A stretch of DNA of 64,000 nucleotides from Desulfosudaceae bacterium. Lineage in GTDB: Bacteria > Desulfobacterota > Desulfobacteria > Desulfobacterales > Desulfosudaceae. Position 1 is the stretch's first letter. Every line of letters starts with the position of its first letter. The DNA lies in contig CAXXDV010000003.1 in the NCBI GenBank assembly GCA_963674745.2, positions 2,336,001-2,400,000 on the forward strand, given 5' to 3'. The notes beneath the pieces were generated by a model. It was not told the origin of the DNA, made no database searches, and saw only the letters and a list, made by a program, of their open reading frames with translations. The translations under genes were made by a program, and so were the position numbers. This document shows positions 1 to 13,211 of this stretch, piece by piece.

Positions 1-1
1 A

Positions 2-178
2 GCAGCCGTCTTATCCATAAGAGGCAACGAACCGATCAAGGCCTATGTCAATAGATTGACCAAACGGCACAGTAAAGGAAAATCACTTACCATCCTGGCC
101 CACAAGTTAGGCCGGACAGTGTATTATATGCTCAAACATAAGGAACCGTTTAATATGGAACGGTTTCTTCCGACGTAA
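2..178 (+). CDS. IS110-family transposase, C-terminal fragment (5' part outside window)
   Basis: Frame from nt 2 reads AAVLSIRGNEPIKAYVNRLTKRHSKGKSLTILAHKLGRTVYYMLKHKEPFNMERFLPT*, which fits the IS110 C-terminal pattern (A..A.R...YY.RL...KGK..A..A.ARKL.R..Y.ML). Confidence 0.85.
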   Translation, partial: AAVLSIRGNEPIKAYVNRLTKRHSKGKSLTILAHKLGRTVYYMLKHKEPFNMERFLPT

Positions 179-600
179 AGCTTGCCGCCACAGCTTGATG
201 CCTAACTGGGACCTGTGAAAATGACTTTGACAGTGATATGTGAAATTGAATTTCTGCAGCCCGACTGCTTAAATATCAATAAAGCAACCGGTTGGGATCC
301 CTTGGCGTTGATTAGAGTGGCGGCATTTAAATAATAAACGGAACAGGAAACGCTGCGCCTTACCCGACCCTGCATTATAACTGGATGGTCACGGCAGTAT
401 CGTGATCAACCCCGACCTTTGAATAGGGCGGCATGAGGTCACCGAATATATTCTAGGGCGTTTACCACTGTGTTGTTCAACTTGGTAAACCGGCAGCAGA
501 TACTGCGTAAGAGACCCTCAATATGTGTTTGTAGCAGCTATTTTACTACGCGCTTTGAATTAAAGACAGTGAGTCCGTTCTGTTTAAAAAACGGAAAGGG
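179..600 (+). ncRNA. candidate bridge RNA/seekRNA in the IS110 3' non-coding end
   Basis: Two closed domains: GCCGCCAC (184-191) pairs with GTGGCGGC (318-325), and AAACGGAAC (336-344) pairs with GTTCTGTTT (577-585). Short matches to the IS right end are present. IS1111-group elements encode their guide RNA downstream of the transposase. Confidence 0.55.
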
Positions 601-737
601 GGAGTAAAAACTCAGGCCCTAAAAAATTTTTATTCCCTATTGACTCCGGGCGGCTCATATGTGTTAACTGATTTTGTTTATAAAATTTCTTGTTAGATAA
701 ATAATATTTAAAAAACAAATTTTTAAATCTTTTGTCA

Positions 738-2059: not shown

Positions 2060-2549
2060 TTAGTTTGGAACTTCCATTTCTTTTTTTATTCGATTGATTT
2101 CATCAAGATGACATGATTCCAATTCATTTTTATTTTTTTCCAACAGCGCAAGGAGTCTGTTCCCTTCTTCTTTTATTTTTATTTTTTTCCAACAGCGCAA
2201 GGAGTCTGTTCCCTTCTTCGGTGTCCCCCTTATTCAATTCTGCGCATATTAGTCCCAATAGGATATCAGGGTTTTGCATTTTTGTGTATGCTTCCCGATA
2301 ATACAATACAGACTTTTCATAGTCCCCTATCATAATATAGCAATAGCCAAGAGCAGCTTTAATAAGTGGGCTTGTCGATTCATTTAAAGCTTTTTTGTAA
2401 TTGCCGATCGCAAAACTAAACCAGTGAAGTTCAGTAAAACAGTTCGCTCGCGCAATATACAAATGTTCTTGGTCAAGCCCTACAAGTAAGTAAGCCAAAT
2501 GGAGATAGATTAATTTAACAATTGTCCATATTTTGCTGGCTATGCTCAT
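2060..2549 (-). CDS. cassette 16: TPR protein, C-terminus frameshifted by a 49-bp tandem duplication (current stop at 2130)
   Basis: AALGYCYIMIGDYEKSVLYYREA is a TPR motif. A 45-bp identical repeat lies at 2126-2170 and 2175-2219. Removing one unit restores the frame to TAA at 2060-2062. Confidence 0.75.
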
Positions 2550-3019: not shown

Positions 3020-3030
3020 ATTTTTCTCGA

Positions 3031-5033
3031 GTCGTGGTAGGAATGCCGGTTACCCGGCACCCCCCACACAGTCCCGGACGTGCGGTTTTCCCGCATCCGG
3101 TTCCTCGGTTATACTCGCTTCCGTGTCGGCTTAGCTCAACGCGCACGTGCGAAAACGTTTCTTTTCCGTCAGCTTCGGTTTCGGTATTTTTACGTATTCT
3201 AAGACCTGCTTAAATCGTTCCCAATTATAGCTTTTACGCTGGCTTCTGCGATTCAGCCATTTAAATGCCGAGCTGATCACATCTCTGTAAAACGACCATA
3301 CCGCACGGGCATTCCCCCGTACATAAAAATAATTGTAATGGCCGGTCAGCTTACGTTTCAGCCCATCAAAGATTTGTCTTTTCGGCAGATGCCGGGACTT
3401 CTTCAACCAATCTCTCATACGCGCCAAGGCTTCACGTTGCTTGGCCGGAGCCGTGCGACGCTGTGCCCGGGCAACACCTTTGCGGTCTTTTGACCAGTAA
3501 AATTCGAACCCCAGAAACGTGAACGTCCTGTCACGCTCCCGGCCGGGTTGGAATCGGCTGAACCGGATGACCTTTGTCTTGCTCGGCTCCACCTCAAGAC
3601 CATAGCAGCCGAGGCGTTTCGAAAGAACATCATAGAACCGGTCCGCATCTTCCCGATATTGAAAGGCGCATACCCAGTCATCCGCATATCTGCACATGAT
3701 GGCACGGCCTGCCAGCCTCGGTTTGACTACCTCCTGGAACCATTTATCCAGCACCTCATGCAGATAAATGTTCGACAGGACGGGAGATACGAGTCCTCCC
3801 TGGGGCGTCCCGGTAACCGGATGCTCGACCTGTCCGTCCGGATGCAGGATGCCCGCTTTCAGCCATTTTCTGATCAACCGCAAGAACGCCCGATCATTGA
3901 TCCGTTTCTCCAGTATGGCCATCAGCTTATCATGGTTAATGGTATCAAAATAACTTTTGATATCCGCTTCCACAACATAGCCGAATACGCCGAACTGAAA
4001 CTGAAACGTCAGGTCGCCGATCGCGTCCTTGGCCCCTTTATCCGGTCGGTATCCGTACGAACAATCCAGAAAATCCGGTTCGTATATCTCCGTCAGGATC
4101 ATGGCCACCGCCTTCTGGACAAGTTTGTCCTCCAAGGCGGGGATGCCCAGGGGCCGTTTCTTACCGTTACGCTTTGGAATAAAACGTCTTTTGACCAATC
4201 TCGCCCGGTATCTCTTCTGCCGGAGCTGTTCCGCCAGCCCTTCCAGGTTGGCGATCAGGTCCTGACTGTATGTCTTGACGGTGATGTCGTCATCGGCTAT
4301 GGCCGAACTTTTATTCAAGCCCTTCCACGCCAGATGAAGCAGTTCCGTATTAAGCAGACCATAAAGATCCCGAAAGCGATGCTGCGTGTTGAACCGAGCC
4401 GTTTTGGCTATCCCCCGCAGTGAGGTTTGCACACGTTTATCCGATCCTGCTGTGTCCGGCATGTGTTTCCTTTGCGGGCTACGTACTTCCGTCAAGTCCT
4501 TCCCCATGTACGTGGCTTTCCCACGCTCAGAGTACTATGCTCGATACGACTCCCACCCAACCAGGGTTCCTCCACTTTCGCTTTGGTTCCCCTTCCTGCC
4601 CTGCGGCTACTTAGGCTCGGCTGATATCTGTATCCGGGTTTCCCTTTCGTGTCTAAGTGTCAGCCGGACCATATTGCCGCGCAGGAGTCGGATGGGCCTC
4701 CCAAGTTCTTGTGTGCGTCTCTTCGTACATGCCACGGCTTGATAACTCCGCCGGCCCTCCACACCCTCACCATAACGGATGCTTTTGTGTTGCCTTCGAG
4801 TACGTTACAACTCTCGGCGACCGGAACCAAGCTTCCTTTCGAAGCGATACCAGCACTTCAGGGAGCACGGACTCCCCTACGGCCTGTACGATTCTCTGTG
4901 TACGCTTCGTGTGGGTCGTTCGACGGTATGCCTATCCTTCCCAATCACGCAACACTCGATACGGGTGGCTGGTTAGGCCTCACCCGACGGGGACTTGCAC
5001 CCCGCAAGACGCACCAAGCTTCGCTTGGCGCGC
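3031..5033 (-). mobile_element. group II intron (2003 nt), probably bacterial class E, inserted in attC R' core
   Basis: 5' end is GCGCGCCAAG. Domain V reads GAACCGGATGCGGGAAAACCGCACGTCCGG and domain VI ends CCTACCACGAC. Excision restores GTTA|TCGA, the complement of the cassette's own R'' (gttatcga 2680-2687). Confidence 0.93.
3131..4507 (-). CDS. ltrA: group II intron reverse transcriptase/maturase (no endonuclease domain)
   Basis: Motifs RPLGIPALEDK, GTPQGGLVSPVLSNIYL, RYADD, FTFLGF and X domain GHYNYF...WLNRRSQRKS. The true start may be 4462 or later. Confidence 0.95.
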   Translation of the reverse strand: MGKDLTEVRSPQRKHMPDTAGSDKRVQTSLRGIAKTARFNTQHRFRDLYGLLNTELLHLAWKGLNKSSAIADDDITVKTYSQDLIANLEGLAEQLRQKRYRARLVKRRFIPKRNGKKRPLGIPALEDKLVQKAVAMILTEIYEPDFLDCSYGYRPDKGAKDAIGDLTFQFQFGVFGYVVEADIKSYFDTINHDKLMAILEKRINDRAFLRLIRKWLKAGILHPDGQVEHPVTGTPQGGLVSPVLSNIYLHEVLDKWFQEVVKPRLAGRAIMCRYADDWVCAFQYREDADRFYDVLSKRLGCYGLEVEPSKTKVIRFSRFQPGRERDRTFTFLGFEFYWSKDRKGVARAQRRTAPAKQREALARMRDWLKKSRHLPKRQIFDGLKRKLTGHYNYFYVRGNARAVWSFYRDVISSAFKWLNRRSQRKSYNWERFKQVLEYVKIPKPKLTEKKRFRTCALS

Positions 5034-12218: not shown

Positions 12219-13211
12219 ATGGAAGATAAACCCAAATTCCGCCCCAATCCCCAGTTGAAATTGCTCGATCAGGTCCGCCAGGTCCTTCGATATCATCATT
12301 ATGCCTATAGCACGGAACACACCTATAGTCACTGGATCAAACGTTACATTTATTATCATGGTGGTAAAACCCATCCCCGTGAATTAAACGAGAAAGACAT
12401 TGAAAATTTTTTATCGCATCTGGCTACAAATGTCAACATTGCAGCTACGACCCAGCGACAGGCATTGAACGCCCTGGTGTTTTTGTACCGTGAGGTGCTG
12501 GATATCCCGCTGACGAAAAAGATTGCGCCGGCCAAGGTAAAAAGGCAAAGCCGACCTCCAACGGTCTTAACACAACAGGAGACCGCCCGGCTTCTGGAGC
12601 AGATGACCGGCACCAATGCGCTGATGGTCAAACTGATGTATGGTTCCGGTATGCGCCTGATGGAATGCATCCGTCTGCGAATTCAAGATATTGATTTTGG
12701 TCAGGGGAAAATTTTCGTGCGGGGCGGTAAAGGGGGGAAAGACCGGGTCACTCTGCTGCCGTCAAATATCCAGGAGAAACTCCAGCATCATATTGGCCGG
12801 GTAAAACAATTGCACAGGGACGATCTTGAAGCGGGTTACGGCCGGGTGTATCTGCCCGGAGCGCTGGCCAAGAAATACCCTGACGCACCAACCAAAATCG
12901 GCTGGCAGTATGTTTTTCCGGCCAAAGAACGATCGTTGGATCCGCGTTCAGGTAAAATACGACGTCATCATGTATTGGGATCCACCCTGCAGAAGGCCAT
13001 CCGCACGGCTGTACGTCGGGCCAGAATAGACAAACGGGTTTCAAGTCATACCCTGCGGCACAGTTTTGCCACCCATATGCTTGAAAACGGGGTTAATATA
13101 AGAGTGCTGCAGGAGCTTCTGGGGCATGCTGATGTGAAAACCACCGAGATTTATACCCATGTGATGAGAAAAGATATTGACGGCTTGAAAAGCCCGTTGG
13201 ATCTGCTTTAA
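12219..13211 (+). CDS. intI: integron integrase (tyrosine recombinase)
   Basis: LLDQVR..LR..HY...TE..Y..W, YGSGMR, GKGGKDR, IntI-specific insert VYLPGALAKKYP...WQYVFP, HTLRHSFATH, LLGH...TTEIYTH. Confidence 0.97.
   Translation: MEDKPKFRPNPQLKLLDQVRQVLRYHHYAYSTEHTYSHWIKRYIYYHGGKTHPRELNEKDIENFLSHLATNVNIAATTQRQALNALVFLYREVLDIPLTKKIAPAKVKRQSRPPTVLTQQETARLLEQMTGTNALMVKLMYGSGMRLMECIRLRIQDIDFGQGKIFVRGGKGGKDRVTLLPSNIQEKLQHHIGRVKQLHRDDLEAGYGRVYLPGALAKKYPDAPTKIGWQYVFPAKERSLDPRSGKIRRHHVLGSTLQKAIRTAVRRARIDKRVSSHTLRHSFATHMLENGVNIRVLQELLGHADVKTTEIYTHVMRKDIDGLKSPLDLL

Follow-up and report, generated by a model that had tools for sequence, protein, structure and literature searches.

An IS1111-type insertion sequence at the R'' end of attC sites in a Desulfosudaceae bacterium and its putative guide RNA

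The stretch of DNA analysed here (the window) comprises 64,000 nucleotides of the 5.5-Mb genome of a Desulfosudaceae bacterium (C3:2336001-2400000). Its first 663 positions constitute the 3' part of an insertion sequence (IS) of the IS110/IS1111 type together with a TG dinucleotide shared with the target. The element looks active, is inserted at this TG in the R'' end of an integron attC site and carries downstream of its transposase gene a non-coding region (179-661), which most likely encodes a guide RNA of the bridge RNA or seekRNA kind. Three short segments of this region (198-206, 303-312 and 517-527) match DNA at the junctions of the element. Directly observed are the borders, the target and the orientation of the element, as well as the conservation of its non-coding region and, across relatives, the agreement of each guide segment with its own DNA partner. 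Unless given otherwise, coordinates are window positions and features lie on the + strand.

Borders of the element and its attC target

The window opens inside the gene of a DEDD transposase, of which the last 58 codons and the stop codon are present (1-178; open frame 2-178, stop 176-178). The start of the whole gene, which encodes 347 amino acids, is at C3:2335135, 866 bases ahead of window position 1. Its product matches both IS110-family domains above the cut-offs, PF01548 with an E value of 4.6e-16 and PF02371 with 1.5e-18. These matches, in combination with a split attC site, bear out the preliminary description of this DNA, in which an IS110/IS1111 element in attC had been proposed.

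A second full copy of the element (C3:1847105-1845484) is 99.8% alike over 1622 bases. Identity between the two copies extends from 957 bases upstream of the window start, where the left end is located, to position 667, past which the sequences are unrelated, and since it stops there the borders of the element are defined. Because intact attC arms carry the TG only once, the element proper is delimited to the 1615 bp reading ATAATC...CTCATATG, with one TG on each side as opposed to the single TG of the empty site. In IS110 terms, this flanking TG (662-663) is the core dinucleotide. It is followed by the rest of the attC R'' core (TTAAC.., 664-670, assigned by comparison of copies and attC sites) and then by the next cassette; the end at 661 thus lies within the R'' core, in line with the preliminary description. 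To the left of each copy lie about 100 nt of an attC site, and its right-hand neighbour is TTAAC or TTAAG. The left end and the other half of attC, which had still to be recovered at that stage, adjoin each other directly upstream of the window.

The two ends of the element share a sub-terminal inverted repeat, which is imperfect in that 10/12 aligned positions agree and a single gap is needed. On the left, ATAATC is followed by ATTGAGCCTCCC, and on the right, GGGCGGCTCAT is followed by ATG (together 648-661), giving extensions of 6 nt and 3 nt, respectively. This agrees with the end rule given for the IS1111 group by Siddiquee et al. (2024; PMC11187229), namely a left extension of 7 or 6 and a right one of 3. 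As is characteristic of the IS110 family, insertion is site-specific, with neither terminal inverted repeats nor a long target duplication. Moreover, the distribution of non-coding DNA, 91 nt upstream versus 483 nt downstream of the transposase gene, is that of the IS1111 group and corresponds to the roughly 480 bp noted previously.

In the genome, 75 matches to the left arm of attC are found. Uninterrupted are 67 of them, reading ..GAGTGGCGT-TG-TTAxxx (60 with TG and 7 with GG); the remaining arms are followed by the left end of the element (four, one of which is a stub of about 11 nt) or by a solo tail of the element (one), or are odd (three). All five occupied sites in the genome are attC sites, entered at the same position, and in the window the body of attC stays on the left of the element with only TTAAC on its right. 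Contigs of the public DNA runs X1 and X3 leave the left flank just past the core G and continue with TTAGAC.. or TTATGC.., like empty sites. Among all contigs of four public runs, neither a circle junction nor an empty-site joint was found. A joint in X3 that skips window 8-484 has a side of 29 letters, which is under the caution line, and has no bearing on expression.

An integron integrase gene above the curated cut-off is located at 12261-13205 on the + strand, and the cassette reading frames lie on the minus strand, which sets the cassette direction as minus. In a hand alignment of two attC types, the right arm (in + coordinates) is 2 nt longer in both, and this longer arm is presumably the R''-L'' arm with its extrahelical bases. 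R'' appears on the + strand as its complement, GTTAxxx. Insertion has taken place within the final bases of R'', at the 5' end of attC, with the element running antisense to the cassettes. The same position and orientation characterize the known IS1111-attC elements, as quoted by Leon (2010; PMC3001079).

Guide segments in the 3' non-coding region

Comparison with relatives was based on a species genome collection with one genome per species, in which 555 stretches encode a related transposase. From these, 79 loci of 53-78% identity were fetched; according to their record labels, they belong to Desulfobacterota, Nitrospirota, Acidobacteriota, Planctomycetota, Spirochaetia, Gammaproteobacteria and others. 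Both ends could be set by a first rule in 51 loci, and 13 of these were dropped because of implausible ends or lengths. The resulting 38 loci represent 33 distinct non-coding regions, namely that of the element itself and of 32 further relatives. The right flanks start with GTTA or GTTG, conforming to an attC-like GTTRRRY in all 32 further relatives, and the left flanks resemble attC stems. An alignment of the 33 regions by MAFFT displays conserved blocks between variable hairpins, and this conservation, together with the comparison of the two copies, delimits the putative bridge or seek RNA with the right end of the element to the 483 nt of 179-661.

The first conserved module, domain 1 (183-325), is closed by the stem 183-191/317-325 and is predicted to contain an internal loop with two target guides. 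This stem is a perfect 9-bp inverted repeat, and the minimum-energy fold predicted for 179-330 is closed by it (-49.7 kcal/mol, z score -3.6, with none of 200 shuffles as good), in agreement with the closed stem described earlier at 184-325. The stem covaries: in 29 elements with 21 distinct 5' arms (four elements, whose extracted region starts at the motif, were dropped), the duplex energy is -21.9 kcal/mol with the own partner compared to -11.8 kcal/mol with partners from other elements. Since the centre of domain 1 aligns poorly, RNAalifold resolved the closing stem alone when applied to the MAFFT alignment of the domain. Within domain 1, a 24-nt direct repeat (75% identical) is found at 205-228 and 230-253. 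The second repeat copy includes ATATGTGA (236-243), which spans the predicted circle junction; it was rejected as a copy of this junction within the RNA, since only 2 of 33 elements show a match of this kind.

The 5' target guide AUGCCUAAC (198-206) is complementary to the core G and the right flank on the + strand (GTTAGGCAT). It includes the GCCTAAC (200-206) which had been regarded as guide-like from the outset, and throughout the family its consensus is G[CU]CUAAC followed by UGG. The variable bases of the guide follow the R'' box, CCUAAC occurring with GTTAGG, CAUAAC with GTTATG and CCCAAC with GTTGGG. The 3' target guide UGGCGUUGAU (303-312; consensus nnnnUUGAUUGG) is identical to the left flank on the + strand, the TG core and the first two bases of the element, and matches the left junction at 10/10 positions in copy A and 9/10 in copy B. 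In DNA letters this segment, TGGCGTTGAT, is the best target match and was missed in the preliminary description. Its core letter is U where the junctions are TG and G in a clade with GG junctions. As judged from the sequence, 198-206 and 303-312 are short target segments for both strands that lie in an internal loop around the crossover, a feature of seekRNAs and bridge RNAs.

A third segment, CUCAAUAUGUG (517-527), mimics the right end of the element, being equal to the right terminus plus the TG core except for one extra A, and is proposed as a donor guide for the right end. Its consensus is CUCnAUAnnUG followed by UUUGGUGCAG, and its two variable letters track the terminus (TATG, TAAG, TAGG, TACG, TAGA or TAAA) in most elements. 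The adjoining conserved block of the UUUGGUGCAG type (528-540; here TTTGTAGCAGCTA) constitutes the 5' arm of a hairpin. The previously noticed identity of ATATGTGTT at 521-529 and 657-665, which contains right-end mimic sequence, holds and recurs nowhere else in the window. On its own this repeat is only weakly beyond chance, since shuffles expect 0.36 matches and 4 out of 100 give two or more, and its weight therefore comes from conservation.

In a permutation test, each guide was scored against its own flank and compared with 20000 shuffles among elements over 34 rows (31 rows, one per distinct element, behaved similarly). The 5' target guide yields 116/204 matches compared to a shuffle mean of 88.3, the 3' target guide 123/272 compared to 88.3, and the right-end mimic 157/170 compared to 134.2; in all three cases, none of the 20000 shuffles reached the observed number. 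In a column-wise test, elements were counted at each position of the alignment if a 6-mer there matched their own DNA exactly, with the DNA of another element as control. At the column of the right-end mimic this applies to 20/33 elements with control maxima of 3-7, at that of the 3' target guide to 14/33 with maxima of 5-7, and at that of the 5' target guide to 8/33 with maxima of 3-5. Covariation was also mapped column by column in a simple way, but clade structure prevailed in this map, which was discarded.

Several observations weigh against a role of the region as guide RNA or against particular pairings. The shuffles ignore relatedness among the elements, which makes the resulting p-values too optimistic. 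A guide for the left end did not emerge, as none of the 5-mers and 6-mers of core plus left end, searched in both orientations in 33 elements, rises above controls; of the donor segments, only the right-end one at 517-527 is apparent. The mimic itself departs from the terminus at one or two positions in 13/33 elements, including the whole clade with the GG core. The right flanks of the two full copies, GTTAACTGA and GTTAAGTGT, match the 5' target guide at merely 4-5 of 9 positions; three defective copies at GTTAGGC flanks match at 7-8 of 9. In addition, one element type may adjoin quite different left flanks (e.g. L067 and L068). No Rfam family matches window 1-670 at E values up to 1, and the match in an RNA library consists of one 235-nt contig from a sediment run covering window 437-665, by which transcription is not shown.

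According to the proposed mechanism, the DEDD recombinase would insert the element by site-specific recombination at the TG inside the R'' end of attC. The internal loop of domain 1 would read the target on both strands, with 198-206 pairing to the core G and right flank of the + strand (the GTTAGGC-type R'' box) and 303-312 pairing to the minus strand of the left flank and TG. The single-stranded segment 517-527 would pair with the minus strand of the right terminus and TG and may thereby serve donor recognition. That the region acts as an RNA, that the recombinase binds it and in which order strands would be exchanged is what we infer.

In the excised circle, the TTGACT at 640-645 and a GATAAT across the junction would form the promoter of the transposase gene. 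TTGACT is located 22 nt from the right end and, as the -35 half of a promoter existing only in the circle, would be followed by a 17-nt spacer and then by GATAAT over the junction. Conservation is in keeping with the initial suggestion of a circle-junction -35 box: in 33/33 elements TTGAC is spaced 22-23 nt from the right end, and joining of the ends yields GATACT or GATAAT in 28/33. A junction promoter has been published for ISEc11 (PMC11187229). Upstream of the right end, a local hairpin, TCCGTT ... AACGGA, is apparent from the sequence at 574-595, and several relatives possess a stronger, terminator-like hairpin at this place. A promoter and terminator scan of 1-720 called no terminator and returned nothing useful.

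Domain 2, defective copies and alternative readings

Downstream of domain 1, the fold of 331-600 (-78.3 kcal/mol, z score -2.3, with 4/200 shuffles as good) has a predicted outermost helix at about 335-344/577-586, close to the stem at 336-585 in the preliminary description. Within this part, conserved pairing and the fold indicate a domain 2 (358-438) with an outer stem 358-370/425-438 and an internal loop formed by 371-381 and 411-424. The flanking consensus of this loop is like that of domain 1 (UAACUGG ... UUUGAnU.GG; here UUUGAAU). Its 5' strand comprises the conserved TTATAAC with a following TGG (375-384), so that the attC-core-like TTATAAC seen previously with its TGG is real and is placed at 375-381 instead of 376-382.

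Domain 2 also accounts for a pair of matches that had been put forward as guides, GGGCGGC at 426-432 and 648-654, and ATGAG at 433-437 with its complement CTCAT at 654-658. The positions are correct. A guide role was rejected, because the segment 426-437 is the 3' strand of the conserved outer stem pairing with 358-370 and because the match is not specific to the element, the ATGAG place (433-435) having exact 6-mers in 9/33 elements with controls of up to 9. The alignment of homologous ends envisaged at that time therefore gives a divided answer: three segments track their DNA partners, and GGGCGGC/ATGAG fall into a stem. Links of the domain 2 loop to DNA partners are weak at most, with p values of 0.026 for the left flank, 0.07 for the right flank and 0.04 for the right end and no link to the left end, against which the 5' strand of the loop scores 86 with 97 expected. 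As a second target loop, domain 2 was rejected on account of the weak links to the two flanks and of its UUUG, which fails to follow the GG core.

The weak links of the domain 2 loop speak for a less likely reading of the region, in which domain 1 alone would be the seekRNA (about 80-150 nt, as in ISKpn4) and the rest would have other uses, such as keeping the transcript stable, terminating it, binding protein or controlling the transposase. Published IS1111 seekRNAs, described as 70-100 nt long and sufficient for movement (PMC11187229), are consistent with such a short RNA. However, domain 2 and the mimic are conserved as much as domain 1, the domain 2 loop shares the flanking consensus of the target loop, and the mimic tracks the terminus of the element.

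Beside the two full copies, the genome contains three defective ones. A head-only copy (C3:1844371-1843563) comprises the first 807 bp of the element and ends with ..CTTGTATG, followed by TG and TTAGGC; here, an internal GTATG is joined to TG exactly where the right terminus CATATG would meet attC. Two solo right-end tails of 135-138 bp (L003:1502-1636 and L004; C1:1481764-1481898 and C1:2287285-2287422), which share 99% and 96% identity with the element, retain its usual right junction and reside in attC sites of two types. They start at window 528 and 531, just past the mimic, and L003 is without 3 bases which a clean TG crossover would leave. Moreover, in a Desulfopila relative (L013:3069-3263) a full copy is followed by an identical second tail of 195 bp in the order element, TG, tail, TG and a GTTAT flank. 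Each defective product has one border exactly at a terminus of the element, which suggests deletions made by the recombinase or movement of modules, as in ISPpu9, for which modular transposition has been described (Pares-Guillen 2025; PMC12288879).

These products bear on an alternative in which the internal copy of the right end (517-531) acts as DNA, being an alternative right junction or the fossil of one from a tail duplication, which the recombinase could use and which would give rise to modular products (head module and tail module) as in ISPpu9. The block indeed reads as a whole right junction, consisting of terminus, TG and then TTTGG.., which resembles GTTAGG. The two solo tails start 1-4 nt past the block, and the directly adjoining second tail in Desulfopila as well as the sub-module circles and solo small RNA modules reported for ISPpu9 (PMC12288879) fit the same idea. 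However, a simple crossover at the TG of the mimic (526-527) would not produce the left borders of the solo tails; L004 fits the TG at 530-531, from which L003 lacks 3 more bases, and in Desulfopila the tail begins not past its own mimic but about 25 nt before it. The block is kept in 33/33 elements and follows changes of the terminus, pointing to continuing selection, which would equally be expected of a guide. Action as a DNA site is considered rather unlikely, and a donor guide is the preferred reading of the mimic.

Very improbable, finally, is that the short matches reflect chance or shared ancestry and that the protein chooses its target by recognizing folded attC: the relatives are mutually related, the left flanks tolerated by one element vary widely and, by our own estimate, about 8 chance 6-mer matches are expected per query (9 are listed for the target query, partly not letter-exact), but at fixed columns of the alignment the three segments exceed controls with the flanks of other elements, and core letter and R'' box variants (GTTAGG, GTTATG, GTTGGG) change with the guide across clades.

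Lineage, known systems and integron setting

Relatives of the transposase number at least 8000 (all 8000 scored candidates passed), and the best 120 of them are 65-95% identical. Among ISfinder transposases, taken from the sequence file of Siddiquee et al. (2024), ISGsu4 and ISMahy12 are the nearest, being the only ones that share peptide words with the window transposase and being similar to it by eye over the full length. The Fig. 8 source data of the same study (PMC11187229) assign ISMahy12 to the IS1111 type and ISGsu4 to the IS110 type, with 5 and 2 unique insertion events, respectively, and give no target for either. Both lie at the far end of the published identity matrix, with 15-23% identity to the IS1111 cluster and 16.8-17.8% to ISPst6, ISKpn4 and ISPa21; exceptions in a deep-branching group are mentioned by the authors (PMC11187229). 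The best plasmid matches outside the clade are 24-32% identical, IS110-type genes of Klebsiella and Escherichia about 24%. Indirectly, the plasmid matches and the matrix rows of ISGsu4 and ISMahy12 place the element outside the monophyletic group containing ISPst6 and ISPa21, as far as sequence comparison can tell.

An integron integrase above the cut-off is encoded in 5/5 tested host genomes of the relatives compared to 0/14 control genomes, and copies of the relatives cluster beside the integrase on the same strand, e.g. 8/9 copies in genome G001 within 38 kb. A literature search, with ISfinder and the two founding papers outside its scope, found no paper naming attC as target of the ISGsu4/ISMahy12-like clade.

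A known system for comparison is the IS1111-attC group (ISPst6, ISPa21, ISKpn4 and ISPa25; Tetu & Holmes 2008; Post & Hall 2009), whose members, like the window element, target the 5' end of attC antisense to the cassettes, have a long non-coding region past the transposase gene and sub-terminal inverted repeats and produce no real duplication. ISKpn4 and ISPst6 insert at one end of attC; their seekRNAs of 82 and 86 nt derive from the downstream non-coding region and co-purify with the transposase, and in these RNAs the match to the top strand lies 5' of that to the bottom strand (Siddiquee 2024; PMC11187229), the order also found here. Prediction places the bridge RNAs of IS1111 elements in the right end in 93% of elements, with donor-binding bases in a multiloop (Durrant 2024; PMC11208160). 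Since an attC-programmed guide RNA is thus already in print (Siddiquee et al. 2024; Durrant et al. 2024), the preliminary description of a natural attC-programmed bridge RNA was overstated as to novelty, while its attC-matching guide segments are present.

By eye, the non-coding region of ISKpn4 shows further resemblance: it ends with CATATG, has a loop of the form ..GATAAC ... GTTTGAAC.. and contains an internal GGATATG..TGCAACC block similar to the right-end mimic of the window. ISEc11 has a GGATATA block and ends with CATATA. These three sequences suggest that a right-end mimic may be general to IS1111 RNAs. In contrast to the IS1111-attC group, the nearest ISfinder transposases of the window element are ISGsu4 and ISMahy12, and the non-coding region of its lineage measures about 480-660 nt, with two similar loops, instead of about 260 nt.

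With IS621 and its bridge RNA (Durrant 2024; Hiraizumi 2024, 2026), the element shares a DEDD recombinase, guides for both strands around a 2-nt core, separate recognition of target and donor, and a circle-junction promoter, the RNA-related points being predicted here. Different from IS621, the putative RNA occupies the right rather than the left end, its guides follow one another in reverse order, its donor segment lies outside a simple internal loop and no left-end guide was found. To ISPpu9 (PMC12288879), the element is alike in having solo 3' modules elsewhere in the genome, whereas the solo tails found here measure 135-138 bp and are without the target loop.

The surroundings of the element are those of a genome with multiple integrons, large cassette arrays and at least two attC families. 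Besides the window integrase, integron integrases above the curated cut-off are encoded at C1:2117407-2118342 and C3:27977-28915. A group II intron occupies 3030-5033 on the minus strand (Rfam RF02005 and RF00029; reverse transcriptase frame 3131-4507), its borders being set by a second copy at C1:2271037-2273127. It is found at the R' (3') end of its own attC and in sense orientation to the cassettes, the end opposite to that used by the IS element, as had been recognized from the start. The intron in this window departs from the rule published for group IIC-attC introns, which are found in antisense orientation and close to the 5' end. Two attC right ends, at C3:2330431 (..CATTG-ATATG-TTTTTA) and C1:903716 (..CGTTG-ATGTG-AAAT), deviate from the expected TG-TTA and may represent scars left by excision of the element or mere variants. 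In addition, window 2130-2230 contains a near-exact short tandem duplication (..TTTTTTCCAACAGCGCAAGGAGTCTGTTCCCTTCTTC.. twice) within a cassette reading frame.

The element belongs to a known kind, the attC-targeting IS1111-type elements with guide RNA, and does not in itself introduce a new principle; its lineage is little described and widespread. What is new, modestly, is this ISGsu4/ISMahy12-like lineage. The chances are about even for the wider view that a deep-branching lineage, whose transposase is about 17% identical to those of the classical IS1111-attC elements, is an attC specialist in at least eight phyla, that its bridge RNA has repeatedly been re-tuned to the attC of the host (GTTAGG/GTTATG/GTTGGG; TG/GG core) and that it carries a second target-like loop, which could represent a second specificity or a donor loop of new design. 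Integron cassette arrays are put out of action or reshaped where insertion sequences target attC, and recombinases of the bridge/seek kind are under development as programmable tools for DNA insertion. The family spans several types of attC, both core dinucleotides and 33 distinct non-coding regions and provides a natural series of co-changing guide and target, which could inform the pairing rules of IS1111-type RNAs. It also shows attC specialists to be far more widespread among chromosomal integrons of the environment than would be guessed from the few clinical examples.

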